64,000 bases of DNA from Fluviibacter phosphoraccumulans EoVTN8. Lineage in GTDB: Bacteria > Pseudomonadota > Gammaproteobacteria > Burkholderiales > Rhodocyclaceae. The stretch covers positions 527,846 to 591,845 of the forward strand of contig CP126743.1 in the NCBI GenBank assembly GCA_036287865.1. Direction: 5' to 3'. A program made the position numbers and the translations under genes. The notes beneath the pieces were generated by a model. That model did not search any database and was not told the origin of the DNA. It was given only the letters and a program-made list of their open reading frames with translations. Shown in pieces: positions 31,283 through 54,200 of the stretch (the first letter of the stretch is position 1; each line of letters starts with the position of its first letter).

Positions 31283-33880
31283 ATGTTAGAAGCTTACCGG
31301 AGCCATGTTGCCGAGCGCGCCGCCCTGGGGATTCCCCCGCTGCCGCTGAATGCCCAGCAGACCGCAGACCTGGTCGAACTGCTGAAGAATCCACCTAAAG
31401 GTGAAGAAGATTTCCTGGTTGAGCTGATCACCTACCGCGTACCTGCTGGTGTGGATGATGCTGCACGCGTTAAGGCGGGTTTCCTGGCCGCTGTTGCCAA
31501 GGGTGAAGTGAAGTGCGCGCTGATCTCGCGTGTGCGCGCTACCGAACTGCTGGGCACCATGCTCGGCGGTTACAACGTTAAGCCACTGATTAATCTGCTG
31601 GGCGATGCCGAATGTGGCGCCGCAGCGGCTGAAGGCCTCAAGAAGACCCTGCTGGTATTCGATTTCTTCCACGACGTGAAAGAACTGGCCGACAAGGGCA
31701 ATGCCAACGCCAAGGGCGTTCTGCAATCCTGGGCTGATGGTGAATGGTTCACCTCGCGTCCTGAAGTACCTGCTTCGCAGAAGCTGACCGTACTCAAGGT
31801 CACTGGCGAAACTAATACCGATGATCTGTCGCCAGCCCCTGATGCCTGGTCGCGTCCGGATATTCCACTGCACGCTCTGGCCATGCTGAAGAACCCACGC
31901 CCTGGTATCGATGCTGATGAGCCAGGTACGCGTGGTCCGATCAAACAACTCGAAGCGTTGGCCAAGAAGGGCAACCAGATCGCCTACGTCGGTGACGTGG
32001 TAGGTACCGGTTCCTCGCGTAAATCGGCTACCAACTCGGTGCTGTGGTTTACCGGTGAAGACATTCCTTTCGTGCCGAACAAGCGTTTCGGTGGCGTCTG
32101 TCTGGGTTCGAAGATCGCGCCGATCTTCTTTAACACCATGGAAGATGCCGGCGCACTGCCCATCGAAATCGATGCCGTTCAAATGAACATGGGCGACGAG
32201 ATCGAGCTGAAGATCGACCAGGCCACAGCAAAGGTTACCGCGCTGAAGAACGGCCAAGTCATCGCCGAATCGCAACTCAAAACGCCAGTGATTCTGGACG
32301 AAGTTCGTGCCGGCGGTCGTATTCCGTTGATCATTGGTCGCGGTCTGACGACTAAGGCACGTGAAGCACTGGGGCTGCCACCATCGACTCTGTTCCGTCT
32401 GCCACAAGACCCAGCCGATTCGGGCAAGGGCTTCTCGCTGGCCCAGAAGATGGTCGGTCGTGCCTGTGGTCTGCCAGAAGGCAAGGGCATCCGTCCTGGC
32501 ACTTACTGTGAGCCGAAGATGACCACCGTGGGTTCGCAAGATACCACCGGCCCAATGACCCGTGATGAGCTGAAGGATCTGGCTTGTCTGGGCTTCTCGG
32601 CTGACATGGTCATGCAATCGTTCTGCCACACCGCGGCTTATCCGAAGCCAGTGGACGTGAAGATGCACCACGAGCTGCCAAACTTCATCGAAACCCGTGG
32701 TGGCGTTGCGCTGCGTCCGGGTGATGGTGTGATTCACTCGTGGCTGAATCGCCTGCTGCTGCCGGATACCGTTGGTACTGGTGGTGACTCGCACACCCGC
32801 TTCCCGATTGGTATCTCGTTCCCGGCCGGTTCTGGCCTGGTTGCCTTCGCCGCTGCTACGGGCGTTATGCCACTAGACATGCCTGAATCGGTGCTGGTTC
32901 GCTTCAAGGGCAAACTGCAGCCTGGAATCACCCTGCGTGACATGGTTAACGCCATTCCGCTGGCGGCCATCAAGCAAGGCCTGCTGACGGTTGAGAAGAA
33001 GGGCAAGAAGAACGTGTTCTCTGGCCGTATCCTCGAAATCAAAGGCCTGCCAGATCTGAAGGTTGAACAAGCGTTTGAACTGTCGGATGCTGCTGCTGAG
33101 CGTTCGGCTGCTGCCTGTGCCATCCAGTTGAACCCAGAGCCAATCGCCGAATACCTGACCTCGAACATCACACTGATGAAGTGGATGATCGCTAATGGTT
33201 ACCAGGACAAGCGTACGCTGGAGCATCGTATCAAGGCTATGGAAGCCTGGATCGCCGATCCGAAGCTGCTGAAGGGCGATGCCGATGCAGAATACGCCGC
33301 TGTGATCGAAATCGACATGGACCAGATCAAAGAACCGATCGTGGCCTGCCCGAACGATCCGGACGATGTGAAGCTGCTGTCGGAAGTTGCTGGCGACAAG
33401 ATCGACGAAGTCTTCGTCGGTTCGTGTATGACCAACATCGGTCACTTCCGTGTCGCCTCTAAGTTGCTGGAAGGCAAGAGCGATATCCCGGTTCGCCTGT
33501 GGATCGCACCGCCAACCAAGATGGATCAGCACGTGCTGACTGAAGAAGGCCACTATGGCGTTCTGGGCCGCACCGGTGCCCGCATGGAAATGCCGGGCTG
33601 CTCGCTGTGTATGGGTAACCAGGCACAGATCCGTAAGGGATCGACTGCAATGTCGACCTCGACCCGTAACTTCCCGAACCGTCTGGGTATCGATACCCGC
33701 GTGTATCTGGGTTCGGCCGAACTGGCTTCCGTTTGTGCACTGCTGGGCAAGATCCCGACCCCGGCCGAGTACATGGAACACCAGGGCGTCATCAGCAAGA
33801 ACGTTGACTCGATCTACCGCTACATGAACTTTGATCAGATCAAAGAGTTCAAGGACGTGGCAGATACGGTTAACGTCTAA
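31283..33880 (+). CDS. acnB: Aconitate hydratase B
   Basis: [58 protein letters not shown]. Confidence 0.98.
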
Positions 33881-33900
33881 GTTGATCTAGCAATAAGAAG

Positions 33901-33933
33901 AACCCGCCGCTCGCAAGACCGACGGGTTTTTTT
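33901..33933 (+). terminator. Intrinsic terminator of acnB
   Basis: ACCCG...CGGGT imperfect stem followed by T7. Confidence 0.7.
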
Positions 33934-33973
33934 ATAGTCGTTCAGTGAAACGCCTCAGATTACAGTCTTGACT

Positions 33974-34003
33974 TTGACTTAATTCAGGTCTAAATTCAGT
34001 CAA
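33974..34003. promoter_or_regulatory. Imperfect palindrome, probable toxin-antitoxin operator
   Basis: TTGACTTAATT...AATTCAGTCAA, 18 nt before the antitoxin ATG. Confidence 0.5.
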
Positions 34004-34021
34004 TCGATTTGGGAGTGAGCC

Positions 34022-34300
34022 ATGCAGACAGTCACCAATATCAAAACAATCTCCTACCTCAAAAGCCATGCGGCTCAAGTAGCCGAGGAATTGGCATTGA
34101 ATGGACAGCCGTTTGTTGTAACCCAGAACGGTGAGGCCAGCATGGTGATTCAAGGCATCAAAGAGTATCAGGAGAAAGAAGCGCTGATCGCCGCCCTGAA
34201 AATTGTTGCGATGGGTGAAAAGCATCGTCAGCAAGGTCATGGTTTGTCGGTTGAAGAATCCAGAGCGCAGCTATTGGCCGCTCGTCAAAGCCGTAAATAA
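34022..34300 (+). CDS. Phd/YefM-family antitoxin
   Basis: IKTISYLKSHAA, PFVVTQNGEASMV; 92 aa; stop overlaps the toxin start. Confidence 0.85.
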   Translation: MQTVTNIKTISYLKSHAAQVAEELALNGQPFVVTQNGEASMVIQGIKEYQEKEALIAALKIVAMGEKHRQQGHGLSVEESRAQLLAARQSRK

Positions 34301-34620
34301 TGTCGATCATTATTTTGCCTGATGCGCAGGCAGATCTGCTTGCGTTGCAGGATTACATGCTTGATCAGTGGAGCGAAGCGGATTGGATCAAAGCTGAAGA
34401 CGAAATCTTTGCAAAGCTAGTTCAGGTTGATGGTAGTTTCTTGACGGGACAAACGGTTTCAGAACTTGCGACTGTTGGCATACTTGATTACAGAAACGTT
34501 TATACGTCCCACCACAAACTGGTATATCGTCGAATCGGTGCTGATACGTATGTTTATATCGTGGCTGGGCATCGCCAGGAATTCCCCACGCTACTGATGA
34601 AGCGTTTATTGCGCGCCTGA
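34300..34620 (+). CDS. RelE/ParE-family toxin
   Basis: ILPDAQADL, HHKLVYR, VYIVAGHRQ; 106 aa coupled to the antitoxin. Confidence 0.82.
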   Translation: MSIIILPDAQADLLALQDYMLDQWSEADWIKAEDEIFAKLVQVDGSFLTGQTVSELATVGILDYRNVYTSHHKLVYRRIGADTYVYIVAGHRQEFPTLLMKRLLRA

Positions 34621-34637
34621 CTTAAAAGGAAATATCC

Positions 34638-35039
34638 ATGAAAAAATCGACATCAATCGCCATCGTTGCATTGCTGGTTTCCGCAACCGGCGTTGCCCAA
34701 GCTGAAACACTGCGCGCCATTACGGTGGAACAAAATGCGAGTTACGCACTTGATATCGACAGCCTGGTGCAATCCAATGGCAAAACGGCTTTTAGCGTTC
34801 AGACGGTTTACACCAGCAAAATGAGAGCACCGAATGGAACGGAATACACCAAAGCTACCAACACCTTTCTGGCAGACTGCAAAGCCAAGACTCAGGCCTT
34901 AACGGGTGTGTCGCTTATGGATGGGTCAGGCAAGGTGGTTTACAGCTACAACCCAACCGTTACTGAAGCACCGATGATTGCCCCGGAAAGAAATTCGCTA
35001 GATGCCAAGATCATGCAAACCGCGTGTGCTATTAAATAA
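34638..35039 (+). CDS. Secreted hypothetical protein, surface-adhesin E-like fold possible
   Basis: Signal peptide (AQA), RBS AAAGGAAA, Cys pair in ADCK and TACAIK, spacing resembling Adhesin_E-like proteins. Confidence 0.55.
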   Translation: MKKSTSIAIVALLVSATGVAQAETLRAITVEQNASYALDIDSLVQSNGKTAFSVQTVYTSKMRAPNGTEYTKATNTFLADCKAKTQALTGVSLMDGSGKVVYSYNPTVTEAPMIAPERNSLDAKIMQTACAIK

Positions 35040-35046
35040 CTATTAG

Positions 35047-36112
35047 GGCGGTGGCAGCCAGACGGCATTCACCTCGGGTGTGTTGCAAGGCCTCTTTGAG
35101 GCTGGTGTGCATGATTCGCATGATATTACGGCAATCACCGGGGCATCGGGTGGTGCTTTGAATGCCGCATTGGCTTGGTATGGTCTATTGAAGCGTGCTG
35201 CCGGCGATGCAACACCGGTACAGCAGCGGATTGCGGATTTTTGGAATGAATTGAAGGCTTCTGAGCCAATGGAGCAGTGAATCGATATGATCGCCTCACA
35301 CTCACTGCGAGTTTCGGGCGCGGGTTACTTACCCAAGTTGGAAAGCAGTCCGTCGTCGCATTTCAGTCAGATGTTGCAGAACGTGATGAGCTATCTGTTA
35401 CCTCGTACGAACTACACGGACTTCAAAGGCTTGATCGAGTCGCATATTGATTTTCATGAAGCAGCACGCCTCAATAATCTGGATCGAAGCACAACCCTCT
35501 TGATGGGGGCAGCCGATGTTCTCAAGGGAAAAATCAAGATATTTAGCTCCCGTGAAAATGCAATTTCTGTCGAGTCTATTATGGCCTCTGCAGCAATCCC
35601 TAGTGTCTTTCCAGCAGTCCAGATTGGTGATTCTTATTATTGGGATGGTCTGTTTTCAGCGAATCCACCGCTTGGCGCTTTGCTTAGAAACGTTTATATG
35701 GGCGGGGGGATCGGTTTCCGGAAGAAATCTGGGTTGTGATGATTGACCCTCTGGAATATCACAAGGTGCCAACCTCGCCGGACGAGATTCTTGAACGTCG
35801 CACCCAGATGACCAGTAATATCTCGGTGGTTCAGGAGATTGAAAAGATCGCGATGTAGTGGAACATGATCTACAGAGATGGCGTTAAGCAAGAGTTTCTA
35901 GATGACAATGGCTTTTCACATGTGCGTCATCTGCGTATTCGGTTTATCAAGATTTCTGATGAAATTCAGTAAACGCCGGACTACGCAAGCAAGCTTTCTC
36001 GTAACCCGGATCGCTGGTTGCTGAGGGCAAAACGCAAGCGCGGGAATTCGTCGCCTCGTTTAGCGAGCCTGGTTTGACGCCTATGGAAGCGCTAAAGCAG
36101 ATATCAGCCTGA
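35047..36112 (+). pseudogene. Patatin-like phospholipase, multiply disrupted and lacking its N-terminus
   Basis: GGGSQTAF loop, GASGG nucleophile motif, ASAAIP, DGLF. Stops at 35044, 35278, 35856 and 35970; frameshift in the G-run near 35705. Confidence 0.85.
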
Positions 36113-36120
36113 TTTATGGA

Positions 36121-38007
36121 TCAAAGGTCGATACGCCGGCTAATGATCATTGAATCGGGGATCGGCATGCTCAGGAATTCAATGGGCTGTTGCGCGTTGC
36201 GGAACATCAACCGGTATAAATTCCGACGCCAGCGCATCATGCCTTTTTCCGGACTAATGCCAACGATACACTGCGTAATGAAAAAAGACGCTGGTTCCGG
36301 ATATTTCGGGAGACTATCTGGCCAGTGTGCTTTTAGCTCATCGGTAATTGAAATTCGCTCCATAAAGCCACAGTTCATTTGGATCTGAAAAAAGCCTTTG
36401 TCACATAGGGTGACGTTCACTCTGTCTTCTGGTGCTACATATGGGGTGAGGACGTATTTAACGTAAAGTAGCGCTACCTGTTCATGGATCACGCCAAAGT
36501 GTTCCATGGTTGTACGTAGACCTCTAAGTGCAAGGTGTGGGTCGTTCAGTAGATAAATCCCGGTACCTTTGGTTCGTGGTGTTTTATCCGTAATCGTATT
36601 GGCAATATATTCTGTAATTGGTACGGCGTCTTTACGAATGCGTTCTAAAAGCGTAACGCGCGCGGTGCCAGGTGGTCATGATAATAATCATGACCAAGCT
36701 GAGTGCCAGAGGTAACCAGCCACCATCCAACAACTTGAGCGTGTTGGATGCAAAGAACACCGAGTCAATGACGATGAAGGTGCAGGCGCCTAGAATAGAT
36801 TGCCAGGTCTTCCAGCGCCAGATATTAATGACAGCCACAATCGCCAGGAAGTCTGTGATCAGCATGGTGCCGGTAACGGCAATGCCGTAAGCGGAGTCGA
36901 GGGCACTGGATGATTTGAAGATCAGGATGACAGCAACAACACAAAGGGCCAGTAGCATGTTAACGATGGGAACAAAGATCTGTCCGACAGAATCAGCGGC
37001 CGTTTGTAAGATGCGCATGTGGGGCAGAAAACCCAGTTGCCAGGCTTGGCGTGTCATCGAGAAGGCGCATGAAATAACGGCTTGTGAGGCAATCACTGTA
37101 GCGACAGCGGCCAGAATGATCAGCGCCTGGTGCAGCACGGCGGGTGCCATTATGTAGAACAGATTGCTTAAAGTGTCAGGTTGGTTGAGTAGCAGTGCAC
37201 CTTGTCCGAAATGGTTTAGTAGGAGAGCGGGTAGCACGAGACCCGTCCAGACAATACGAATGGGCAGCGGGCCAAAGTGGCCCATGTCTGCATACAGTGC
37301 TTTCGCACCGGTGAGACAGAGCATCACAGCGCCAAGCGCAAAAAATGCGAGGGGTCCGTGGGTTGCCAGAAATTCGATGGCATGGAATGGATTTAATACA
37401 GAAAGAACGCCGGGGTGCTGCAGGATATTGAGAACACCCAGAGCGCCAATCGCAACAAACCAGACCAGCATGACGGGCCCGAAAAAGAGGCCGATGGTGC
37501 CGGTGCCTCGGCGTTGTGACCATAAGAGTGCGAGCAGGATGCCAAGCGCTACAGGGATCACAAATTCCTTGAGGCTGGGGGAAATTAGTTTCAGGCCCTC
37601 TACCGCAGAGAGTACAGAAATGGCAGGCGTAATCACGCCGTCACCATAGAAGAATGATGCGCCGATGAGCCCAAGTATTAAAAGAGTGCGGCGTTTGGGT
37701 GAATCTTCCGGCAAGTGGCCCATGGCCAATGCCATCAACGCTATGATGCCGCCTTCACCATGATTGTCTGCACGCATCATGAAAAACACGTACTTCAGCG
37801 ACACCACCATCATCAGCGACCAGAAGAAGAGAGACAGTACGCCGTAGATATTGGCTTCACTCACTGGTACCGCGAATGGATCCCATTCGAAAAGACCTGT
37901 TCAAAAGCATAAAGCGGGCTGGTGCCGATGTCGCCGAAAACGATACCCAATGCGGCGAGGCTGAGTGCCTGCAGGGATTTTTTGGTGGTTGTTTCAGAAC
38001 TGCTCAT
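36121..38007 (-). pseudogene. kup: Potassium transporter Kup, two frameshifts
   Basis: [51 protein letters not shown]. Frameshifts near 37872 and 36655; total span is about full Kup length. Confidence 0.9.
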
Positions 38008-38092
38008 GGTTTGGCTTAGACGATTGTATAACCCTCAATTATATCAATCGAAGCTATGCATCCACTTTGATGGGGACTGCAAGTATTGTTTA

Positions 38093-38133
38093 TTGACAGG
38101 GGTTGTTTGATGTTTATACTTATGTATAAACAT
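38093..38133 (+). promoter_or_regulatory. Sigma70 promoter with overlapping palindromic operator of mazEF
   Basis: TTGACA (38093) - 16 nt - TATACT (38115); perfect inverted repeat ATGTTTATAC-TTAT-GTATAAACAT (38110-38133). Confidence 0.8.
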
Positions 38134-38154
38134 GCGTTGCAAAGGGAGCTAACT

Positions 38155-38409
38155 GTGAGCGAAGCCATTCTAGATATCAAGCATTGGGGAAATTCACTGG
38201 GTGTGCGTTTGCCAGCGGCGCTGGCTCGTGAAGTGGGATTAACGGTGGATCAGCGTGTGCGCCTGGTCGTTGAAGATGGTCGTGTGGTCATTACCCCTGT
38301 GAGCAATGAGCGATTGACGCTAGAACAACGTTTAGCGACTTATGATGTGCAGCGCCATGGGGGTGAAGCGATGAGCACGGATGAGCATCTCGGAGCTGAG
38401 CGGTGGTAG
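38155..38409 (+). CDS. mazE: AbrB/MazE-family antitoxin
   Basis: KHWGNSLGVRLPA, VEDGRVVITP; GTG 38155 with AGGGAG RBS. Confidence 0.88.
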   Translation: MSEAILDIKHWGNSLGVRLPAALAREVGLTVDQRVRLVVEDGRVVITPVSNERLTLEQRLATYDVQRHGGEAMSTDEHLGAERW

Positions 38410-38780
38410 GCCGCCTGCGAGTCAGTTCCCATTGGGTGCCGGATCGGCAGGACGTTATCTGGATTGATTGCAATCCGCAGTCTGGTAGAGAAATGAAGGA
38501 TTTGCATCCATTTCTGGTTCTATCGCCCAAGGCCTTTAACGAAAAGACCTCTTTGGTGGTCGGTCTCCCTATGACCACGGCTGCGTATAACGCAGACAAC
38601 CCCTTTGCAGTGGCCGTGGGGCACATAGAAAAGCGTGGCCAACCTAAAGTCAGTTTTGTTTTGTGTCACCAGCCAAAATCGTTCGACTGGCGTGCGCGTG
38701 GCGCGAAGCCGCATCCATTAGGTCAATTAGAGATGGCGGTGTTTCAGGAAGTGTGTGCTATTTTGAACCAGATTGCCTGA
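38403..38780 (+). CDS. mazF: PemK/MazF-family endoribonuclease toxin
   Basis: DVIWIDCNPQSGRE, HPFLVLSP, LPMTT, HQPKSFDWRARGA. Confidence 0.88.
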   Translation: MVGRLRVSSHWVPDRQDVIWIDCNPQSGREMKDLHPFLVLSPKAFNEKTSLVVGLPMTTAAYNADNPFAVAVGHIEKRGQPKVSFVLCHQPKSFDWRARGAKPHPLGQLEMAVFQEVCAILNQIA

Positions 38781-38812
38781 GTCTGCTCAAGCTTGAGTAG
38801 TACTCTAATAAC

Positions 38813-38848
38813 AAAAAGCCCCGGAGTTTTTAACCGCCGGGGCTTTTT
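38813..38848. terminator. Bidirectional terminator between mazF and nrdJ
   Basis: AAAAAGCCCCGG...CCGGGGCTTTTT. Confidence 0.85.
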
Positions 38849-38868
38849 ATTGGGTGCTACCTTAGTGC

Positions 38869-41745
38869 TTAGCCGCAGGTACCTACAGCACCGCAAGCGG
38901 TACAGAAGTCACAACCATCTTTTCTAATCATGGTGGTGTTGCCGCACTCGCTGCACAGCTTACCTTGAACTGGCTTCACCGCACCTTCTTCGGTTGGGGC
39001 TTGCAGAATACCCATCTGTTTCAGTGGGAAGCCGTTTTCATCGAGAATGCCCAGCATGGCGTAGCGATGTAGGATCAGGTGAGCCAGGTAAGCAATGGTC
39101 GACGGGTAGGTCTGTTGCTTACGCGAACCTGGTACGAAGGCCAGCATGTCACCCAGAGGTTCCGGGTAGTCCAGCAGCTTACGTAGCTTCATGCCGATCC
39201 AGGCTGGGTCAATAACGCGCATGTCTGTCGACAGCAGCTTCGAGAGGCCATCCAGGGCGCGCGGGTAGTTACCTGACAGCCACATTGAGTATGGGCGGCT
39301 CACGTCATCTGGCAGGGTGATTTCTTTCAGACCCAGTACGAAGTCTTCGCCGGTGTTCGGGTTGTAGATATCAACCGTCCACGACAGGGTGCCATCAGTA
39401 CCGGTTTTCGGCTCTTTGGCGCTCATCAGGGCATCGAATACTGGGGTTGGTAGATCCTGCTTGAACCAGCCCAGTTGCTCGACACGGAAGCGCACCAGTT
39501 GTGCGAATGCCGAAACTGACGACGACATGAGCTGACGTTCACCATTCGGTGGGAAGGCTATGTCAAACGATTCGCCGGCAGATGGGGTGTTCGACAGTGA
39601 GTCGAGCTTCAGCTTCAGCCAGGCCGGGTCGTTGGCGCGCATGTCCATCGAGAGGGTCTTGGCAACCGCACCCAGGCCACGCGGTTGGTCCGGGCCGTTA
39701 ACCCAGACTTCGAATGGCCAGTTTTTGGCTTCCTGTTCAACGTGACCGACAAACAGCGCGAACTTACCGAACGGACCATCAATCATGTAGGTCCAGGCCA
39801 GGTTACCTTCAGGCAGGTTAGGGCGGTTTGGCCAGCGCAGCGATGAAAGAACCGGTGCCGGCAGATACTTGATGTGCAGACGACGGTTAGCATCGTTGGT
39901 CACAAAGTCTTGTGGTTGTTTCTTCTCTTCTTCTTGCTTTGACGTATCAACCGACAGCACCGAACCTAGCACGCTGTTCGGACGATAGGTGGCAAGACCC
40001 TTCAAACCGGCCTTCCAGGCTTGCATGTACAGATCCTGGAACTCTTCGTACGGGTAGTCAGCCGGTACGTTCACCGTCTTAGAGATCGAGGTGTCGATAA
40101 ACGGTGCCACTGCGGCAACCATGTCTTTGTGCGCCTTGGCCGACAGTTCCAGCGCCGTCACAAAGTAGTCTGGCAGATTGTTCACGTTGCCGCCCAGGTG
40201 GCGGTACAGACGCCAAGCGTGGTCTTCAACGGCGTATTCTTTGATGTTGCCATCGGCCATGCGCTTCTTACGGGTGTAGGTCCAAGAGAAGGCTGGTTCG
40301 ATGCCGTTCGAGGCGTTGTCGGCAAAGGCTAGCGAGATGGTGCCGGTAGGCGCGATCGACAGCAGATGCGAGTTGCGCAGGCCGTGCTTACGGATCTCGG
40401 CCTTCACTTCGTTCGATAGACGCGAGGCAAAGTTGCCACCCGACAGATACAGCTCGGCGTTGAACAGCGGGAAAGCACCACGCTCTTTAGCCAGATCGAC
40501 CGAGGTCAGATACGCGGTGTCGCGCATGTATCTAGAGATCTTCGAAGCCATGGCTAGTGCTTTTTGCGAGTCATAACGCAGCTTCAGCATGTACAGCGCA
40601 TCACCCAGGCCTGTGAAGCCCAGGCCGACACGGCGCTTATTCATCGCTTCCTGTTGCTGGTTGGCGAGTGGCCAGTGGGTGGCATCCAGTACGTTATCCA
40701 GCATACGGATCGACACTTTAACGACTTCACCGAAGGCAGCGAAATCGAACTCGGCCTTCTCGCCAAATGGATCAATGACGAAGTGGGTGAGGTCGATCGA
40801 ACCCAGGCAGCAGCAGCCGTATGGGGGCAGCGGCTGTTCTGCGCAAGGATTCGTTGCTTCGATCAATTCGCAGTAGTTGAGGTTGTTGTCCTTGTTCATG
40901 CGATCCAGGAACAGGATGCCAGGTTCAGCATGATCGTAGGTGGACTGCATGACCTGATCCCACAGATCACGGGCGCGCACCTTGCGGTAAACCCACATGC
41001 CGTCTTCGCGCTGGTAGGCGCCTTCGGCCAGGATGTCTTCGTTAGGCTCTGCAATGTGGACCAGTTCAACGCTATCGTCGGCTTCAACCGCTTTCATGAA
41101 GGGATCGGTCACGCCGATCGAGATGTTGAAGTTGGTCAGGTCGCCTTTGTTTTTGGCGTGGATGAATAGTTCGATGTCCGGATGGTCGCAACGCATCACC
41201 CCCATCTGGGCACCACGGCGCGCACCGGCAGATTCAACGGTTTCGCACGAACGGTCGAATACGCGCATGTACGAGACAGGACCCGAAGCGCGGGAGTGGG
41301 TGCCTTTAACGCGAGCGCCTTGTGGGCGGATCGACGAGAAGTCGTAGCCAACGCCGCCGCCGCGACGCATGGTTTCGGCCGCTTCAGCCAGCGCGGTGTA
41401 GATGCCTGGGCGGCCATTAACTGTTTCAACGACCGAGTCACCGACCGGCTGCACAAAGCAGTTGATCAGCGTGGCTTGCAGGTCGGTACCGGCGGCGGAG
41501 TTAATACGACCTGCTGGCACAAAGCCGTTTTCCTGTGCCCACAGGAATTTGCTTTCCCATTTGGCGCGGTTTTTTTCATCTTCAACCTTGGCCAGGGCGA
41601 GGGCAACGCGGGCGCGTACTTCCTGGATTGATTGCTCTTTGCCCTTGGCGTATTTTTCAATCAGAACTTCGGTACAGATTTCCTGTGGTGGAAGATCGGC
41701 ACGTGCAGTTGCGGCTGTCTGTTGGGTGTTTGTCTCGGTTGTCAT
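38869..41745 (-). CDS. nrdJ: Adenosylcobalamin-dependent (class II) ribonucleotide reductase
   Basis: [53 protein letters not shown]-terminal Zn ribbon; no ATP cone evident. Confidence 0.93.
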
Positions 41746-44353: not shown

Positions 44354-44404
44354 TTTCCGGCTCTTGGCCGTGCTTGGCACTGCATTGCATCTACGGAATT
44401 CGCC

Positions 44405-45826
44405 ATGGCAAAAACACTTTACGATAAATTGTGGGAAAACCACGTTGCCTGTCAGGAAGAAGACGGCACAGCGCTGATCTATATTGACCGTCATCTGGTA
44501 CACGAAGTGACCAGCCCACAAGCCTTTGAAGGGCTGCGAATGGCCAATCGCAAGGCCTGGCGTATTGAGTCTGTGGTGGCCACCGCTGACCACAACACAC
44601 CGACCGATGGTTGGGAAAAGGCCGAAGGCACAGCTTGTATTGATGACGAGATCTCGCGTCTGCAGGTCGATACACTCGATGCCAACATTCGCGCGAACGG
44701 CGCGTTAGCTTATTTTCCCTTCAAAGATGTACGTCAGGGCATCGTGCATGTGGTTGGTCCGGAGCAGGGCGCCACACTACCGGGTATGACTGTCGTCTGC
44801 GGTGACTCGCATACCTCAACGCATGGTGCGTTTGCTGCGTTGGCCTTTGGTATCGGTACCTCGGAAGTCGAGCACGTGCTGGCCACGCAGACACTGATTT
44901 CCAAAAAATCCAAGTCGATGCTGATTCGCATTGAAGGCCACGTTGGTAAGGGTGTCGGCGCTAAAGACATCGTGCTGGCCATTATTGGCAAGATTGGCAC
45001 CGCAGGTGGTATGGGTTATGCCATCGAGTTTGCCGGCAGCGCCATTCGTGGTTTGTCGATGGAAGGTCGTATGACCGTTTGCAATATGGCCATCGAAGCT
45101 GGTGCGCGCGCCGGTATGGTGGCAGTGGATGATATGACCATCAATTACGTACAAGGCCGTAACTTCGCGCCAAAGGGCTGCGATTGGGATAAGGCCGTGG
45201 CTTACTGGCGCACGCTGCATACCGATGAGGGTGCAAAATTCGACAAAGTAGTTGAGCTTGATGCGCGCACCATTCAGCCGCAAGTGACCTGGGGTACTTC
45301 ACCAGAAATGGTGGTCGGCATTAACGAGATGATTCCTGATCCGGCGAAGGAGCAGGATCTGGTTAAGCGTGAAGGGATGGAGTGCGCGCTGGCTTATATG
45401 GGTTTGAATCCGAACACACCAATTGCCGGTGTACCCGTCGACAAGATTTTTATCGGTTCGTGCACCAACTCGCGTATCGAAGATTTGCGTCAGGCCGCTG
45501 CCATTGTGCGCGGTTGTTCCGTAGCCGCGACTATAAAGCTGGCGCTGGTGGTGCCGGGTTCGGGTCTCGTTAAGCGTCAGGCCGAAGAAGAGGGTCTGGA
45601 CAAGATTTTCAAGGCCGCGGGCTTTGAATGGCGTGAACCGGGTTGTTCTATGTGTCTGGGCATGAATGCAGACCGTCTGTCGCCGGGTGAGCGTTGTGCC
45701 TCGACCTCGAATCGTAACTTTGAAGGCCGTCAAGGCCCGATGGGTCGTACCCATCTGGTGAGCCCGATCATGGCCGCGGCTGCGGCTATCGCTGGCCGTT
45801 TCGTTGATGTGCGGGAGGTGCTGTAA
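44405..45826 (+). CDS. leuC: 3-isopropylmalate dehydratase large subunit
   Basis: [48 protein letters not shown]. Confidence 0.97.
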
Positions 45827-46467
45827 TGGATAAGTTTGTTGTGCTGGATGGCCTGGTAGCACCGCTGGATCGTGCCAATGTCGATACCGATGCCATCATC
45901 CCGAAGCAGTTTCTGAAGTCGATTAACCGTTCGGGGTTTGGTCCGTTCGCATTTGACGAATGGCGTTACATGGATGTGGGGCAGCCAGGTCAGGATTGCA
46001 CCAACCGTCCGCTGAATCCGCAGTTCTCGCTGAACCAGCCGAAGTTCAAGGGCGCGTCGGTGCTGCTAACCCGTCAGAACTTCGGTTGCGGTAGTTCCCG
46101 TGAACACGCCCCATGGGCGCTGCTCGACTATGGCTTCCACGCCATCATTGCCGAGTCCTTTGCCGACATTTTCTTCAACAACTGTTTCAAGAACGGCATC
46201 CTGCCGATCGTATTGCCAACGCAAGTGGTCGATCGCCTTTTTGCCGAAACGCTGGCAACGCCGGGTTACCGCCTGGTTGTGGATCTGCCGAATCAGGTGG
46301 TGCGCACACCATCGGGTGATGCGATTCCTTTTGACGTGGATGCTTTCCGCAAGGAATGTCTGATCAACGGTTGGGATGATATCGGTCTGACGTTGCGCCA
46401 TGCAGATGCGATTCATGCCTATGAAGATCGTCGCCGTAACGAACAGCCCTGGTTGTTTGCTAAATAA
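45826..46467 (+). CDS. leuD: 3-isopropylmalate dehydratase small subunit
   Basis: [33 protein letters not shown]. Confidence 0.97.
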
Positions 46468-46485
46468 TTCTCTGGAGTATTTCTG

Positions 46486-47565
46486 ATGTCTCGCAAGATT
46501 CTCGTACTGCCGGGTGACGGCATTGGCCCTGAAATTACTGCTGAAGCAGTGCGCGTGCTCGAAGCGCTGAACAAGAGTGGCCTTGGTCTGGAAATCACCA
46601 CCGGTCTGCTGGGCGGCTGCGCCGTTGATGCCACAGGTGAACCGTATCCGGCCGAAACGCGCACCAAGGCTGAAGCAGCCGATGCCGTGCTGCTCGGTGC
46701 AGTGGGTGGTCCGCAGTGGGATACGTTGCCGCGTGAACAGCGTCCGGAGCGCGGTCTGCTTGGCATTCGTAAGCACCTGAACCTTTTTGCTAACCTTCGT
46801 CCGGCCATTCTGTATCCCGAGCTGGCTAATGCCTCGTTGCTCAAGCCTGAAGTCGTATCGGGTCTGGATATCCTGATCGTGCGCGAACTCACCGGCGACA
46901 TCTACTTCGGTCAGCCACGTGGCGTTGAAGAGCGCGACACGGAGTGGGGTCGCCAGAAGGTGGGCTATAACACCATGGTTTACGCCGAGAGCGAAATCCG
47001 CCGTATCGCCCATGTGGCTTTTCAGGCAGCGCAGAAACGCGGCAAGAAGCTGTGCTCGGTTGATAAGATGAACGTGCTGGAATGTACCCAGTTCTGGCGC
47101 GATATCTTTGAAGAGATCGCCAAGGAATATCCGGACGTGCAACTTTCGCACATGCTGGTGGATAACGCCGCCATGCAGCTGGTGCGTGCGCCGAAGCAGT
47201 TTGATGTCATGGTCACCGGCAATATGTTCGGTGACATCCTGTCGGATGAAGCCTCAATGCTCACGGGTTCGATCGGCATGCTGCCGTCGGCCTCGCTGGA
47301 CGAAAACAATAAAGGTTTATACGAACCATCACATGGTTCCGCCTCGGATATCGCCGGTAAGGGCGTGGCCAACCCGTTGGCAACGATTCTGTCCGCCGCC
47401 ATGCTCCTGCGCTACACTTTCGGTTTGGAAGCCGAAGCGGTGCGTATCGAGAATGTGGTTCGCACGGTGTTAGCTCAGGGCTATCGTACGGCCGACATCT
47501 ATGAAGAGGGCACCCGCAAGGTGGGTACCCGCGAGATGGGCGATGCTGTACTTGCAGCACTGTAA
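46486..47565 (+). CDS. leuB: 3-isopropylmalate dehydrogenase
   Basis: [38 protein letters not shown], HGSAxDIAG. Confidence 0.97.
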
Positions 47566-47610
47566 TTGAAGTTATATCAATAAATAGCAGTTCACACGGA
47601 GATAAGAGTC

Positions 47611-48750
47611 ATGGCAAAGCCTGTCGTTGGTCTGGTCGGTTGGCGCGGTATGGTGGGTTCGGTCCTCATGCAGCGCATGCAGGAAGAAAAAGACTTTGCT
47701 CACATCGAGCCAGTGTATTTCTCGACGTCGAATGCAGGCGGTGATGCGCCGGCTTTCGGTGGCGTGAGCTCGGGCGAGAAACTGCAAGACGCCAGCAACA
47801 TTGATGCACTCAAGAAGATGGACATCATCCTGACCTGTCAGGGTGGCGACTACACCAAAGAGGTTTATCCGAAGCTGCGCGCAGCCGGTTGGAACGGTCA
47901 CTGGATTGATGCTGCTTCGGCATTGCGTATGGCTGATGATGCCGTGATCGTACTCGACCTGGTGAACCGCGATGTGATCGATGCCTCGCTGGGCAAGGGC
48001 GGTAAAAACTGGATCGGCGGTAACTGCACCGTGTCACTGATGCTGATGGGTCTGGGTGGTCTGTTCGAACACAAGCTGATCGACTGGGTATCGTCGATGA
48101 CTTATCAGGCAGCCTCGGGTGCTGGTGCACAGAACATGTGCGAACTGATTGCTCAAATGGGCACCATCCACGCATCGGTGGTAGATCTGCTGAATGACCC
48201 GAAGTCGGCCATTCTGGAGATCGACCGTAAGGTTGCCGAAACGATCCGTTCGGATGCTTTCCCGAAGAAGAACTTCCGCAACACACCGCTGGCCGGTTCG
48301 TTGATTCCATGGATCGATGTGCCTGTTGAGCATGGCCAGTCGAAGGAAGAATGGAAAGGCGGCGCCGAGTGCAACAAGATCCTCGGTAACCCCGCGTTCC
48401 GTTCGCCAGGCTCGATTCCGATCGATGGCCTGTGTGTGCGTATCGGCGCCATGCGTTGTCACTCGCAAGCACTCACCATCAAGCTCAAGAAAGATGTGCC
48501 GCTGGACGAAGTGAGAGACATTCTGGCCAAGGCCAATGATTGGGTGAAAGTGGTGCCGAATGAACGTGAGCTGAGCGAACGTGACCTGACACCTGCTGCC
48601 GTGACCGGTACGCTGACGGTGCCCGTGGGCCGACTGCACAAGATGGCAATGGGTCCGGATTATCTGGCTGCGTTCACCTGTGGTGACCAGTTGCTTTGGG
48701 GTGCGGCCGAGCCGCTGCGTCGTATGCTACGCATTCTGGTAGAAGCTTAA
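47611..48750 (+). CDS. asd: Aspartate-semialdehyde dehydrogenase
   Basis: [47 protein letters not shown]. Confidence 0.97.
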
Positions 48751-48762
48751 TTAATTAAGTGG

Positions 48763-48796
48763 ACGCCCCGTCTGGCTTTGCGGCCGGGCGGGGCGT
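48763..48796. terminator. Strong GC hairpin after asd
   Basis: ACGCCCCGTCTGGC-TTTGCG-GCCGGGCGGGGCGT; no clear U-tract. Confidence 0.5.
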
Positions 48797-48818
48797 TGTC
48801 GTTAAGGCGAGTAATTAG

Positions 48819-49052
48819 ATGAATATTCCTGATTGGGTCTGGGTGGTTGGTAGCCTGACACTGTTGTTGCTGGGATTGCAGCTGGGGGTTAGCCTCGGTC
48901 GCGCTGGAGAAAAGGCGCGGCAGAATGAGCATGCAAAACCAGATCATGACGATCAGCCACGCGTTAAACCCCAGCCTAAGGTCAACTGGGGTTCGATAGA
49001 TCTGGATCTGTCTTCCCCGCCTAAAGACAAAACACCGGACACCGATCGCTAA
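48819..49052 (+). CDS. Small single-pass membrane protein at the usual fimV position
   Basis: 77 aa, N-terminal TM helix, charged tail containing SIDLDL. Confidence 0.55.
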   Translation: MNIPDWVWVVGSLTLLLLGLQLGVSLGRAGEKARQNEHAKPDHDDQPRVKPQPKVNWGSIDLDLSSPPKDKTPDTDR

Positions 49053-49054
49053 AA

Positions 49055-49708
49055 ATGTTCACTGGCCAGACTGCTTCGTCGACGCGTATCTCGCCTGCGA
49101 TCAAGTTGATCTCCGTATTTGCTGTTGCCATCGCCTTGCAGTCTGTTTTGGGTTTGCCGTTAGCGGCAGCTTTGTGTCTTTGGGCGCTAGCACGCCATCG
49201 CGTCCGGTTTTTCAAGTTGCTACGTTGGGTTCGCTTATTGATAGTTGTCCTTTTTATGGTCACGTTACTCATGACGCCGGGTGCTGCGTTATGGCCCGAA
49301 TGGGGTTTATATCCCACTGAAGAGGGGATGCTGCTCGGGGTGACACAGCTATTCCGATTAGTGGGTATGCTAGCCGTCGTCAGCCTGTTGCTAGATACCA
49401 CAGACGATCGTAGTCTCGCTGCCGGGTCACTTTCATTGTTGCAGCCTCTGGCGGGTAAACGACAGTGGCCGGAACGTGCTGTGGCGCGCTTGTTGCTGGT
49501 GTTTCATTATCTGGAAACGGCGCCCAAGCCACGCAACCTGCATGATGTATTGGCGTTGGCGGGCGCAGATCTGTCTGTTTCTACTGTAGTGGATGCGCCT
49601 GACGTACTTGAGTTAGAGGTAGTGCCTTTGTCCGTCCGTGACCTGGTGTTGGCCGGTCTGATGCTGGGTGCTGCTTTCCTAAGCCTTGCCTGGGGGAGTG
49701 TTGCATGA
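49055..49708 (+). CDS. CbiQ/EcfT-like transmembrane protein
   Basis: Hydrophobic ORF with TPGAALWP, ERAVARLLLVFHY; sits before truA as in related betaproteobacteria. Confidence 0.65.
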   Translation: MFTGQTASSTRISPAIKLISVFAVAIALQSVLGLPLAAALCLWALARHRVRFFKLLRWVRLLIVVLFMVTLLMTPGAALWPEWGLYPTEEGMLLGVTQLFRLVGMLAVVSLLLDTTDDRSLAAGSLSLLQPLAGKRQWPERAVARLLLVFHYLETAPKPRNLHDVLALAGADLSVSTVVDAPDVLELEVVPLSVRDLVLAGLMLGAAFLSLAWGSVA

Positions 49709-50547
49709 CACAGCAGCGCTGGGCATTAGGTATTGAATATAATGGCGCCGCGTTTCATGGTTGGCAAGCGCAAGCACCGACGACGCAAGTTGTTAATGGG
49801 TTGCCTGTAGGATCAACCCTACCCACCATTCAGGGTGCGCTGGAATCGGCCATGTCACAGATTGCCGATGCACCGGTGCAGATTGTTTGTGCAGGCCGTA
49901 CCGATGCGGGCGTGCACGCCACCGGGCAGGTGATCCATTTCGATGCACCGGTCGAGCGGCCCGATTCGGCCTGGGTGAGAGGCGTCAATGCGCTATTACC
50001 CGATAGTTGTGCCGTGCGCTGGGCACAATCGGTAGCGGAAGATTTTCATGCGCGGTTTAGTGCAACAGGGCGGCGTTACCGCTACATTCTGCTCAATCGA
50101 CCTGAGCGGGCAGCAATTTTCGCTGGCCGTGCCGGCTGGTTCCATCGACCATTGGATGTGGCGTCGATGGCTGTTGCTGCCCGATCGATTCTTGGGACGC
50201 ATGATTTCAGTGCGTTTAGAGCGGCTGAGTGTCAGGCAAATAGCCCCATCCGTACGCTAACCGAAGCTCGTGTAAGCCGTCAGGGCGATTGGGTGGTCTT
50301 TGATTTTGCGGCGAACGCATTTTTACAGCACATGATTCGTAATCTGGTGGGGGCATTGGTCTATGTGGGTAAAGGTGCCGAACCCGTGACACTCACGACA
50401 ACCTTGTTGGCGCAAAAGGACCGCAAGCTGGCACCACCGACATTTATGCCGGATGGCCTGTATCTCACCGCAGTCGATTATGATGCGGTATGGGAGTTGC
50501 CATCTGCCGGACAGAAGGGTGATCCACTTCAGGTTTTTAATTTCTGA
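49705..50547 (+). CDS. truA: tRNA pseudouridine(38-40) synthase
   Basis: [47 protein letters not shown]. Confidence 0.96.
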
Positions 50548-50560
50548 TGATCGTTATTTC

Positions 50561-51187
50561 ATGACACTGCACGCTCAACCCCGCATTAAAGTTTGTGGCC
50601 TGACCCGCGTTGAAGATGTGCAAGCGGCTGTATCGGCAGGCGTTGATGCAATTGGCCTGGTTTTTTATGCCGACAGTCCGCGACACGTCACTATTAAGCA
50701 GGCTAAAACCCTGGCCAGGGCGATTCCACCCTTTGTGACCATTGTCGGTTTGTTTGTAAATGCATCCAGAGCAGAAGTTAACCGCGTGATCGAAGAAGTT
50801 CCGCTCAATTTGTTGCAGTTTCACGGTGATGAGACTGTTGATCAGTGCGAGGGATTTGGCTTGCCGTATCTGCGCGCTGCGCGCGTTCGGCCAGGGGTCG
50901 ATCTGTTAGAATTCGCGATGCAATTTCCCACGGCACATGCCCTGTTGCTCGATACCTGGACCCCGGCTTATGGCGGGAGCGGGGAATCGTTTGATTGGTC
51001 GCTAGTTCCGTCTTCGTGCCCCTTGCCAGTGATTCTTTCCGGTGGGCTGAATCCATACAATGTGGCTGAGGCCATACGTCAGGTTCGCCCCGTGGCGGTT
51101 GACGTGTCTTCCGGGGTAGAAAGTGCTAAAGGCATTAAAGATGCCGACAAAATTCGAGCTTTCGTCCATGCCGTTCGTGGCCAGTGA
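50561..51187 (+). CDS. trpF: Phosphoribosylanthranilate isomerase
   Basis: [38 protein letters not shown]. Confidence 0.96.
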
Positions 51188-51223
51188 TGAAAGATGTCTC
51201 ACAGTAGTCAGGATATTTGCTTC

Positions 51224-52498
51224 ATGAAACCCTACGATTTGCCAGATAACCGCGGTCACTTTGGTCCCTACGGCGGATCTTTCGTGTCAGAAACGCTGGT
51301 GGCGGCGCTCGAAGAACTCAAGCATGCCTACGCGCACTACAGCCGCGATCTGGAATTTATTGCCGAGTTCGAGAGTGAACTGAAGCACTTCGTAGGTCGA
51401 CCCAGTCCGATTTATCACGCCAAGCGCTGGAGTGAGCTGCTGGGCGGGGCGCAGATTTATCTGAAGCGTGAAGATCTCAATTACACCGGTGCTCACAAGA
51501 TTAACAACACCATTGGTCAGGCTTTATTGGCACACCGTATGGGCAAGAAGCGCGTTATTGCCGAAACCGGGGCTGGTCAGCATGGGGTTGCATCGGCAAC
51601 TGTAGCCGCCCGCTTCGGCATGAAGTGTGTGGTCTACATGGGTGCAGAAGACGTGGGTCGCCAGTCGGCCAACGTGTATCGCATGAAGCTGCTGGGTGCC
51701 GAAGTAGTGCCCGTTGAAAGCGGTTCGCGCACGCTGAAGGATGCACTGAATGAAGCGATGCGTGATTGGGTCACCAACGTTGAAGACACCTTCTACATCA
51801 TTGGCACCGTGGCGGGCCCGCATCCGTATCCGATGATGGTGCGTGATTTCAGTTCAGTGGTCGGCAAAGAGTGTGTGAAGCAGATGCCTGATATGGTTGG
51901 CCGTCAGCCCGATGCGGTGATTGCCTGTGTGGGTGGTGGTTCCAATGCCATGGGTGTTTTCTACGACTACATTCCGCACGAATACGTTAAATTGATCGGC
52001 GTAGAGGCGGCCGGTGATGGTATCGATACGCCACGTCACGCTGCATCACTACAGCTGGGCAAGCCTGGTGTACTGCATGGCAACCGCACTTATCTGTTGC
52101 AGGATGATAATGGTCAGATCATTGAAACGCATTCTGTTTCGGCGGGTCTGGATTATCCGGGTGTGGGGCCGGAGCATGCCTGGCTGAAGGATAGTGGCCG
52201 TGCCGAGTACGTGGGTGCTACCGATAAAGAAGCGTTGCAGGCTTTCCATGATTTGTGTCGTATCGAAGGCATTATTCCTGCGCTAGAGTCCAGTCATGCA
52301 CTAGCCTACGCCGCAAAGCTGGCGCCAACATTGCCTAAGGACAAGATCCTGCTGGTCAATCTGTCTGGTCGTGGTGATAAGGATCTGCATATCGTTTCTG
52401 AAGCCAGTGGCATGGAGTTTTATTGCCGTCAGAGCTGCCGTACGGCATTTGCAAAAGCCGGTATGCGCGTTAACGACAGCAATGCGGAGACCAGGTAA
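51224..52498 (+). CDS. trpB: Tryptophan synthase beta chain
   Basis: [45 protein letters not shown]. Confidence 0.97.
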
Positions 52499-53310
52499 TG
52501 GGACGTATTACCGATACATTTGCCGCTCTGGCCGCACAAGGTAAAAAAGGCCTGATCCCATACATCATGGCAGGTGACCCTGCGCCGGCGCTAACCGTTG
52601 ATCTGATGCATGCACTGGTTGAAGGCGGCGCCGATGTCATTGAACTCGGTGTGCCTTTCTCTGATCCGATGGCCGATGGCCCGGTGATTCAACGTGTGGC
52701 CGAGCGTGCGATTGCGCAGGGTGTGGGTATGCGCCAGACACTGGCGATGGTGGCTGAATTCCGCAAGAAGGATCAGACGACGCCGATTGTCTTGATGGGC
52801 TACGCCAATCCGATTGAGTGCATTGGTCAGGCTGCCTTTGTTGAAATGGCAAAGGCGGTGGGGGTGGATGGGGTATTGGTAGTGGATTATCCGCCGGAAG
52901 AGTCGGAAGACTTTGCCAAGCAGTTACGCGCCGTCGATATGAATCCGATTTATCTGCTCGCGCCAACATCCACCGAAGAACGTATTGCGGCAGTGGCTAA
53001 GGTGGCTAGTGGCTATCTTTACTATGTGTCGTTGAAGGGTGTAACAGGTGCGGGTCACCTGGATCTGCATGAAGTGTCGCAGCGCATTCCGCAAATTCGT
53101 CAGCGCACTGGTTTGCCGGTGGGCGTGGGTTTTGGTATTCGTGATGCCAGCACAGCAGAACGACTGGCAGGTATGGCCGATGCCGTTGTGGTTGGCAGTC
53201 GTTTGATCGATGCCATTACCAGTGTGCCGAAGCGTGAAGCGCGTGCCGCTTTGCTGGCGGTGATGAAAGATATTCGTGCCGGCGTTGATAAAGCCGCCGC
53301 TAAACAATAA
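52498..53310 (+). CDS. trpA: Tryptophan synthase alpha chain
   Basis: [35 protein letters not shown]. Confidence 0.96.
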
Positions 53311-53333
53311 TTAACGTTTATTAGGAGCATGCG

Positions 53334-54200
53334 ATGAATTGGGTTAACAAACTGCTGCCCCCCAAGATCAAACGCGCGGATGGTCAGCGTAAGAGCGCCT
53401 TGCCAGAAGGCTTATGGTGCAAGTGCCCGAATTGCGAAGCGGTTCTGTATACGGCAGACCTTGAGGCCAACATGCAGGTGTGCCCGAAGTGCGAGCATCA
53501 TCATCGCGTTAAGGTCCGTGCCCGTCTGGACATGCTGATGGACGCCCATGGCCGTAAAGAAATCGGTGCAGAAGTGCGTCCGAAAGATGCGCTGAAGTTT
53601 GTAGATAGCCGTCCGTACCCGGTGCGTGTTGAAGAAGCGCAGAAGCAGACGAGCGAAACCGATTCGCTGGTCGTGATGCAGGGCACGATTGAAGCGGAAC
53701 CGGCCGTAGTTGCCTGTTTCGAATTCGAATTTATGGGTGGTTCGATGGGCTCGGTATTGGGTGAGCGTTTTGTGCGCGGCGTACGTGCTGCCATCGAAAA
53801 CAAGTGTGGTTTTGTCTGTATCACTGCTTCGGGCGGTGCCCGTATACAGGAAGGTTTATTCTCGCTGATGCAGATGGCCAAGACAACCGCGTCGATTTCT
53901 GAGTTGGCGCGCCATGGCTTGCCGTTTATCACCGTGTTGACCGATCCGACTATGGGCGGCGTTTCTGCCTCATTCGCCTTTGTGGGTGATGTCGTTATCG
54001 CCGAGCCGAATGCGCTGGTAGGTTTCGCGGGTCCACGCGTGATCGAACAGACAGTTCGTGAAAAGTTGCCAGAAGGCTTCCAGCGTGCCGAGTTCCTTCT
54101 CGACAAGGGTGCCATCGATATGATCGTTCATCGCAAATCGCTGCGTGATGAATTGTCTTCGCTGCTGCGTATTCTGCGTAAGGAACCGGTGAGCTCCTGA
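53334..54200 (+). CDS. accD: Acetyl-CoA carboxylase carboxyltransferase beta subunit
   Basis: Zn finger WCKCPNC...VCPKC, FMGGSMG, PTMGGVSASFA, GFAGPRVIEQT, GFQRAEFL. Confidence 0.96.
   Translation: MNWVNKLLPPKIKRADGQRKSALPEGLWCKCPNCEAVLYTADLEANMQVCPKCEHHHRVKVRARLDMLMDAHGRKEIGAEVRPKDALKFVDSRPYPVRVEEAQKQTSETDSLVVMQGTIEAEPAVVACFEFEFMGGSMGSVLGERFVRGVRAAIENKCGFVCITASGGARIQEGLFSLMQMAKTTASISELARHGLPFITVLTDPTMGGVSASFAFVGDVVIAEPNALVGFAGPRVIEQTVREKLPEGFQRAEFLLDKGAIDMIVHRKSLRDELSSLLRILRKEPVSS

Follow-up and report, generated by a model that had tools for sequence, protein, structure and literature searches.

Missense changes at invariant residues and probable early genome erosion in Fluviibacter phosphoraccumulans EoVTN8

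Genes and changed residues in the window

The stretch of DNA analysed here, referred to below as the window, comprises 64,000 nucleotides (positions 527846-591845 of contig C1) of the closed, complete genome of Fluviibacter phosphoraccumulans EoVTN8, which has 1,672,251 bp and a G+C content of 53%. The region at 31283..55560 on the plus strand is a block of intact housekeeping open reading frames (ORFs; acnB, aroC, leuCDB, asd, truA, trpFBA, accD and folC). We counted 15 genes in this block, including two minus-strand ORFs that lie within it (36632-37864 and 38869-41745). Seven codons of the block encode amino acids that are unexpected in well-known enzyme motifs. The initial annotation described these as C>T or G>A missense changes at conserved residues, and attributed them either to slightly deleterious mutations fixed by drift under a deamination-type bias with weak repair, or to deamination damage in the assembly. 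Our analysis of these codons and of the wider genome indicates that they are, with high probability, signs of early genome erosion.

The genus is Fluviibacter (Rhodocyclales), and the Asd protein is 98% identical to its homologue in a metagenome-assembled genome (MAG) of Fluviibacter sp. The congeners compared were G003, G002, G001, G011, G007 (F. phosphoraccumulans SHINM1) and G016. The nearest of these is the sister genome G003, a MAG of 130 contigs (1.4 Mb at 81% completeness) with 94-95% nucleotide identity to EoVTN8, followed by G002 at about 87% and the remaining congeners at 80-86%. The EoVTN8 genome (1.67 Mb) is smaller than those of SHINM1 (2,295,374 bp) and G001, both of 2.3 Mb, and isolates have 2.3-2.4 Mb. 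The 16S rRNA gene is 98.6% identical to that of SHINM1. However, the aligned regions of these two genomes share only about 80% nucleotide identity, and they are therefore not one species by average nucleotide identity.

The coordinates and letters of all seven codons in the window sequence match those originally given, and at each site a single C>T or G>A step separates the congener codons from that of EoVTN8. All seven residues are private to EoVTN8 and so are not variants shared by the clade. The canonical residue is present at seven of seven sites in all six congeners (five at the AccD site). In AcnB, glutamate 587 is replaced by lysine (LEI[K]GLP, 33041..33043, plus strand; GAA>AAA, a G>A change), where the congeners have GAA and Escherichia coli AcnB also has Glu. 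In AroC, the first proline of the PPG motif has become serine (GC[S]PG, 42243..42245, plus strand; CCC>TCC, C>T; congeners CCC, CCG or CCT), and this proline is present in five of the five solved chorismate synthases shown. LeuB carries P287S (HGSA[S]DIAG, 47344..47346, plus strand; CCG>TCG, C>T; congeners CCG or CCT), at a position where 11 congeners and the solved isopropylmalate dehydrogenases all have Pro.

Asd has two changes on the plus strand, P117L (LD[L]VN, 47959..47961; CCG>CTG through C>T at 47960; congeners CCG) and R177C (NM[C]EL, 48139..48141; CGC>TGC, C>T; congeners CGC or CGT), and both positions are invariant in 80 of 80 betaproteobacterial homologues. In TrpB, a histidine located five residues before the lysine that binds pyridoxal phosphate is replaced by tyrosine (LN[Y]TGAHK, 51482..51484, plus strand; CAC>TAC, C>T; congeners CAC). 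The histidine of LNHTGAHK occurs in Thermus, Pyrococcus and ancestral TrpB structures, and like the LeuB proline and the first proline of AroC it is kept in solved structures from distant phyla. The AccD change, M171I (GGAR[I]QE, 53844..53846, plus strand; ATG>ATA through G>A at 53846; congeners ATG), is conservative. This position is Met in E. coli and Staphylococcus aureus and Gln in one solved homologue, and because of the latter we regard it as the weakest and mildest of the seven.

Several other features of these frames are peculiar. The acnB start codon at 31283 is ATG in EoVTN8 and GTG in all congeners, a private G>A change that improves the start. The longest ORF of aroC includes an additional 42069-42152 and begins 28 codons before the homology to solved chorismate synthases (MSGNT... 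at 42153); judging from the alignment, the true start is probably 42153. The TrpB ORF (51194-52498) has an N-terminal extension and also continues for about 30 residues beyond the end of all solved homologues, with the alignment stopping at about residue 403 of 434. The congeners share residue 424, which suggests that the C-terminal tail is characteristic of the genus.

The seven codons belong to a larger set. Across the 15 genes of the block, EoVTN8 has 69 private amino-acid changes at congener-invariant positions (defined as positions with the same residue in at least four congeners), compared to 11 in G003 (binomial p = 2e-11), and pure C>T or G>A changes account for 37 of the 69.

The window also contains four genes that are broken in EoVTN8. 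One, located between aroC and leuC, is a major facilitator superfamily (MFS) transporter pseudogene (43268..44353, plus strand; Pfam MFS_1_like) in which TGG has become TAG at 43616 by a G>A change, and the frame is open in G003 and G002. Another is a patatin-like phospholipase pseudogene (35047..35739, plus strand; Pfam Patatin) with TTG>TGA at about 35278 and another broken frame downstream. The remaining two are adjacent on the minus strand: a transglutaminase-like gene (18451..19320; Pfam Transglut_core) with CAG>TAG at about 18778, and a neighbouring gene of the same cluster (19376..20677), in which a CAA>TAA change at about 19778 is accompanied by a private indel of 2 bp near 20643. We take the latter to be alpha-E-like, a name that does not come from the Pfam scan.

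Substitution spectrum and selection across the genome

For the genome-wide analysis, the sequences fetched from G003 (412 kb) and G002 (830 kb) gave a three-way alignment of 244 kb spread round the chromosome, in which G002 served as the outgroup for polarising substitutions by parsimony. Selection was analysed in 205 genes (67,133 codons), whose frames were chosen as evolving like coding sequence between G003 and G002, a filter that also removes antisense "shadow" frames from the scan for new stops.

The alignment contains 6509 substitutions private to EoVTN8 and 4900 private to G003. The private changes of EoVTN8 are strongly enriched in C>T/G>A (3160 vs 1948), as the initial annotation had predicted, and C>A is also more frequent (689 vs 386). 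The other classes are similar in the two genomes: T>C 1590 vs 1495 (p = 0.09, not significant), C>G 514 vs 481, T>A 262 vs 289 and T>G 294 vs 301. The extra changes are therefore specifically G:C>A:T, as no class other than C>T and C>A is in excess. The G+C content is lower as well, both at third codon positions (GC3; 0.570 vs 0.580 in G003) and in coding sequence overall (0.542 vs 0.549), so that an AT-ward substitution bias and a fall in G+C content both occur in EoVTN8. If the nonsynonymous excess is taken as a proxy for nearly unselected input, the shares are 69% C>T, 14% C>A, 12% T>C, 4% C>G and 2% T>A and T>G together, and the per-site ratio of GC>AT to AT>GC is about 5.

The excess in EoVTN8 is evenly distributed along the genome. 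The C>T excess amounts to 0.7-1.6% in all 16 trinucleotide contexts, which rules out motif-specific deamination, either of 5-methylcytosine of the Dcm type or by a TC deaminase resembling DddA or APOBEC. The C>A excess is concentrated at CCN, i.e. at the 5'-G of GG on the opposite strand. In both EoVTN8 and G003, C>A is several times commoner at CCN than elsewhere, and EoVTN8 amplifies it more at CCC, CCG and CCT than at CCA.

The effect on proteins is large. Nonsynonymous C>T changes in the 205 genes number 652 in EoVTN8 and 100 in G003 (p = 5e-100), and together with the 69 and 11 changes at invariant positions of the window, this places the pattern far beyond chance. Synonymous C>T changes number 1695 and 1363. 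Per site, the C>T excess is 0.86% for nonsynonymous and 1.19% for synonymous changes, which corresponds to an omega (dN/dS) of about 0.72, and the omega of the excess, about 0.7, compares to about 0.03 for the G003 baseline. Over all private changes, nonsynonymous and synonymous counts are 1447 and 3812 in EoVTN8 and 592 and 3436 in G003, so dN/dS is raised. Approximately 1.7% of EoVTN8 codons carry a private missense change.

Gene constraint makes little difference to this load. Omega is 0.67 in the most constrained tertile of genes, 0.73 in the middle one and 0.81 in the least constrained. The most constrained third of genes has 205 nonsynonymous C>T changes in EoVTN8 vs 8 in G003, with about 0.8% of codons carrying an extra missense C>T, and private missense falls on highly conserved positions as often as elsewhere. 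In intact genes, nonsynonymous C>T occurs at about 75% of the rate in the genome's own pseudogenes. The private replacements are also more radical in EoVTN8 than in G003 (mean BLOSUM62 score -0.04 vs +0.33, p = 3e-5), and typical ones belong to the GC>AT set (A>T, A>V, D>N, G>S, R>H, R>C, E>K, P>S, P>L and H>Y). The most constrained genes are struck as often as the least constrained, and the original description of the changes as "slightly deleterious" may thus understate their effect.

Nonsense changes behave differently from missense changes. Single-step C>T nonsense changes were observed 10 times, compared to the 40-55 expected at the rate of the missense or synonymous excess (Poisson p <= 2e-8), and are thus depleted 4-5-fold per site relative to either. 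Nevertheless, stops or frameshifts have broken 27 of the 205 genes (13%) in EoVTN8, and several of these have more than one lesion. Genes with in-frame stops in EoVTN8 that are open in G003 and G002 include those for ThiC, a PyrR-like phosphoribosyltransferase, HflX (two stops) and an M17 aminopeptidase. Further stopped genes are two MFS transporters, a patatin-like lipase and a transglutaminase/circularly permuted ATP-grasp/DUF2126 cluster; the identities of the stopped genes were confirmed by Pfam. Private frameshifting indels in real genes number 24 in EoVTN8 (of 1, 2, 4, 10 and 13 bp) and 4 in G003. The broken genes are dispensable ones, and the core frames are intact.

In addition, two separate clusters of transglutaminase, alpha-E, circularly permuted ATP-grasp and DUF2126 genes are decaying in EoVTN8, one at C1:1524534-1531928 and the other at 18451-20677 of the window. 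Each has several stops and indels in EoVTN8, and both are intact in G003 and G002.

Origin of the changes

The odd residues could in principle be absent from the living organism and reflect damage to the sequenced DNA by cytosine deamination and oxidation, or other errors in the consensus. Several observations resemble such damage. The excess is mostly C>T/G>A, is even along the genome, occurs in all 16 contexts, and is alike in strongly and weakly constrained genes. CCN is the context of the 8-oxoguanine artefact that arises during DNA preparation, and the C>A excess at CCN resembles it. In these respects EoVTN8 is similar to DNA with post-mortem or preparative deamination, such as ancient DNA or formalin-fixed, paraffin-embedded samples, and to DNA with 8-oxoguanine artefacts.

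Damage should be blind to the difference between nonsense and missense, yet C>T stops are depleted and fall in dispensable genes. Likewise, the nonsynonymous excess per site is below both the synonymous excess and the rate in pseudogenes. The point changes are accompanied by private frameshifts, including those of 2, 4, 10 and 13 bp, and by pseudogenes with multiple lesions, and C>A is raised as well as C>T. Nor would a consensus error of 0.5% be plausible in a 1.67-Mb contig that is closed and whose core frames are intact.

The direction of replication provides further evidence. Judged by the cumulative GC skew, the origin lies near 310 kb and the terminus near 1150 kb. Per site, C>T on the leading strand is 1.44 times as frequent as G>A on the leading strand among the nonsynonymous changes of EoVTN8 (p = 3e-6), and the same ratio is 1.41 among synonymous substitutions of G003. 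The excess therefore shows the same leading-strand C bias as natural substitutions in the sister genome. Damage in extracted DNA has no access to the direction of replication, so this asymmetry argues for mutation in vivo. Unlike damage artefacts, the changes in EoVTN8 are selected against when they create stops, differ in frequency between the replication strands, and are joined by indels and gene decay. These four lines of evidence (nonsense depletion, strand asymmetry, the rise in C>A, and the frameshifts and multi-lesion pseudogenes) speak against the possibility, raised in the initial annotation, that the assembly carries deamination damage, and we consider it very unlikely.

A sampling difference between the two genomes has a probability close to negligible as the explanation. 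According to this idea both organisms are ordinary free-living bacteria, EoVTN8 being a single clone with recent polymorphism that has not yet been purged and G003 a metagenome consensus in which rare deleterious variants are masked. The contrast between a closed genome and a MAG of 130 contigs fits the idea, and Rocha et al. 2006 are said to have found that dN/dS is inflated for very recent changes. However, the load is too large for standing polymorphism, as shown by the missense C>T counts in the most constrained third of genes, and about 13% of genes, including thiC and hflX, are broken, with GC3 shifted.

We also investigated the repair genes. Genes for uracil-DNA glycosylase (UDG), MutS, MutL, MutY and endonuclease III (Nth) are present in EoVTN8, all without internal stops, and none of these five has been lost. 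The nth homologue is located in the window (22621..23028, minus strand) and has an intact frame with four private changes at invariant residues. The corresponding counts are 14 for MutS, 19 for MutL (counted without the G003 reference), 4 for MutY and 2 for UDG, and missense changes are about as frequent in the repair proteins as in the genome on average. The changes include MutL G61D, which adjoins ATPase motif I, and MutY W185C, but the catalytic Glu and Asp of MutY are unchanged, as are its Fe-S cysteines. Gene loss of ung, mutY or nth is ruled out. The missense changes in these proteins, of average density and sparing the catalytic residues of MutY, single out none of them as a cause. A mismatch-repair mutator is likewise ruled out by the flat T>C class and the intact MutS and MutL frames. 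GC-neutral substitutions are equal in total (776 in EoVTN8 vs 770 in G003), which indicates that there is no general mutator. Of the originally proposed "drift plus weak repair", then, fixation by drift under a deamination-type bias holds up well, whereas weak repair is unsupported, as UDG, MutS, MutL, MutY and Nth are intact.

A second gene of the UDG superfamily (about 255 aa, just over the Pfam cut-off) occurs in four congeners, at G002:C1:34996-35505, G001:C11:39679-40188, G007:C1:2226076-2226558 and G014:C26:2976-3482. It was not found in EoVTN8, G003 or G016, and because it is also absent from the latter two its loss is not specific to EoVTN8.

A narrower type of mutator deserves more consideration. 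The changes could be real but stem for the most part from a G:C>A:T mutator state specific to this lineage, and not solely from drift, with subsequent hitch-hiking to fixation. The proposed causes are missense-impaired repair of uracil, oxidised cytosine or 8-oxoguanine, or a deaminating or oxidising intracellular milieu. The dominance of C>T among the nearly unselected changes (69%) and the high per-site ratio of GC>AT to AT>GC are as expected for such a state. The C>A excess falls at a hot spot of oxidation, the 5'-G of GG, and MutS, MutL and MutY carry the private changes described above. In addition, nonsynonymous C>G (+31) and T>A (+5) barely rise next to C>T (+587), less than pure relaxation predicts. 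However, no repair gene is truncated, the catalytic and Fe-S residues of MutY are intact, and the missense load of the repair proteins is average. The increase is similar for C>T (1.6-fold) and C>A (1.8-fold), unlike what a single repair defect would produce, T>C and the GC-neutral total are not raised, and both transition classes fit the relaxation of a GC-favouring force (S about 1.6). We regard this explanation as quite unlikely.

Closely related is the idea that the erosion itself comes from a discrete rise in the G:C>A:T mutation rate, through deamination and guanine oxidation, in a cell whose base-excision repair is crippled by missense changes or that is exposed to a host cytoplasm. This is rather unlikely. 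If it were true, many intact ORFs, such as leuB, trpB and asd, would already be dead "cryptic pseudogenes" that are invisible to ORF-based annotation.

Early genome erosion, in which purifying selection has largely collapsed on the terminal branch of EoVTN8 and the mutational input is dominated by G:C>A:T, is probably the correct explanation. The residues are private and the spectrum is enriched in C>T/G>A, and both observations support fixation by drift under a deamination-type bias. We hypothesize that purifying selection was relaxed recently and almost completely on this branch, while about 69% of nearly unselected changes entered as C>T and about 14% as C>A. Missense changes (P>S, P>L, H>Y, R>C, E>K and M>I) would then build up at invariant residues of intact ORFs, at some 70-75% of the rate expected under neutrality. 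Purging would by now be limited to changes that abolish an indispensable gene, i.e. nonsense in needed genes. Drift or Muller's ratchet combined with AT-ward pressure could in this way lead to early reductive evolution, as in recently host-restricted bacteria, and the underlying cause may be a small effective population following host restriction.

We computed a two-phase model from the spectrum and the selection counts, in which a free-living phase with a GC-favouring S of about 1.6-2 is followed by relaxation. Under this model the last tenth or so of the branch would be relaxed, with an omega of about 0.5-0.7. The model agrees with the two transition classes and with the synonymous pattern. 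It over-predicts the nonsynonymous rise in C>G, T>A and T>G, where the last class gains 12 changes in EoVTN8, although all of these counts are small. This misfit may leave room for a genuine shift of the input toward C>T and C>A.

Some observations weigh against early erosion after host restriction. All allele calls were taken from the assembled consensus sequence, and a uniform omega across constraint classes would also be expected from errors or from an unselected burst. The repair-gene loss that we looked for among UDG, MutS, MutL, MutY and Nth has not occurred. The sister genome G003 is of similarly small estimated size, and some 93% of the DNA fetched from it can be aligned to EoVTN8; most of the reduction in size therefore probably came before the erosion and does not by itself speak for erosion in EoVTN8. 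Finally, the sole pointer to a host association of EoVTN8 is a lead in the literature.

Related systems and consequences for annotation

That lead concerns a ciliate. A symbiotic Fluviibacter of Euplotes octocarinatus is named in a part of PMC13071891 that cites Wang et al. 2024 (Appl Environ Microbiol 90:e0190023). EoVTN8 belongs to the same genus and has a closed, small (1.67 Mb), pseudogene-rich genome with raised dN/dS. The abstract of that work reportedly describes a small symbiont genome rich in pseudogenes, with raised dN/dS, in agreement with EoVTN8. Based on the citation and the reported abstract, as distinct from a match between records, it is plausible and indeed likely that EoVTN8 is the Fluviibacter symbiont of E. 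octocarinatus. The process is of a well-known, textbook kind, and a description of it in this symbiont probably exists already; it therefore comes as little surprise.

By analogy, we would regard Polynucleobacter necessarius in Euplotes as the closest parallel. Its genome is said to measure about 1.6 Mb with more than 10% pseudogenes (work attributed to Boscaro et al., 2013 in PNAS and 2017 in Nat Ecol Evol). It too is a recently host-restricted betaproteobacterium with close free-living relatives, intact core frames and relaxed selection. It differs in belonging to the order Burkholderiales, as opposed to Rhodocyclales. In contrast to P. necessarius, EoVTN8 has a nearest relative (G003) that is already small, and its erosion proceeds mainly through point mutations. 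So far, the erosion in EoVTN8 is seen as point mutations and small indels, not as deletions.

The composition of the changes is also familiar. Hershberg and Petrov 2010 and Hildebrand et al. 2010 reportedly found a universal GC>AT mutational bias that is exposed under relaxed selection. The GC>AT-only excess and the fall in GC3 in EoVTN8 are similar to the findings of those studies and to the early erosion of Sodalis and SOPE (the Sitophilus oryzae primary endosymbiont), Serratia symbiotica and Mycobacterium leprae. The latter organisms also share with EoVTN8 a raised dN/dS and nonsense or frameshift pseudogenes in dispensable genes. Loss of repair genes is common in older symbionts; unlike these, EoVTN8 has lost none of the repair genes considered above. 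A pair of genomes only 6% apart, of which one is eroding and the other is not, offers a clean estimate of the nearly unselected spectrum at the onset of genome reduction, before repair-gene loss.

As far as the sequences can tell, the changes are real, genome-wide and typical of a bacterium under recently relaxed selection. A few "wrong" residues in textbook motifs are enough to flag a genome in which purifying selection has collapsed, and intact reading frames in EoVTN8 cannot be taken to encode working enzymes. Several ORFs that are intact, namely leuB, trpB, asd and aroC, may already be functionally impaired, to judge by the residues that they have lost. Pathway reconstructions may therefore overstate the abilities of EoVTN8 in the synthesis of leucine, tryptophan, the aspartate family and chorismate.

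The two 16S rRNA gene copies of EoVTN8 (C1:424601-426110 and C1:843193-844702) differ from each other at 6 of 1510 positions. The differences are a G>T at position 441 and a cluster of five nucleotides at 844-848, and the two SHINM1 copies are identical across this stretch. Going by this divergence, gene conversion between the rRNA operons of EoVTN8 could be no longer effective.

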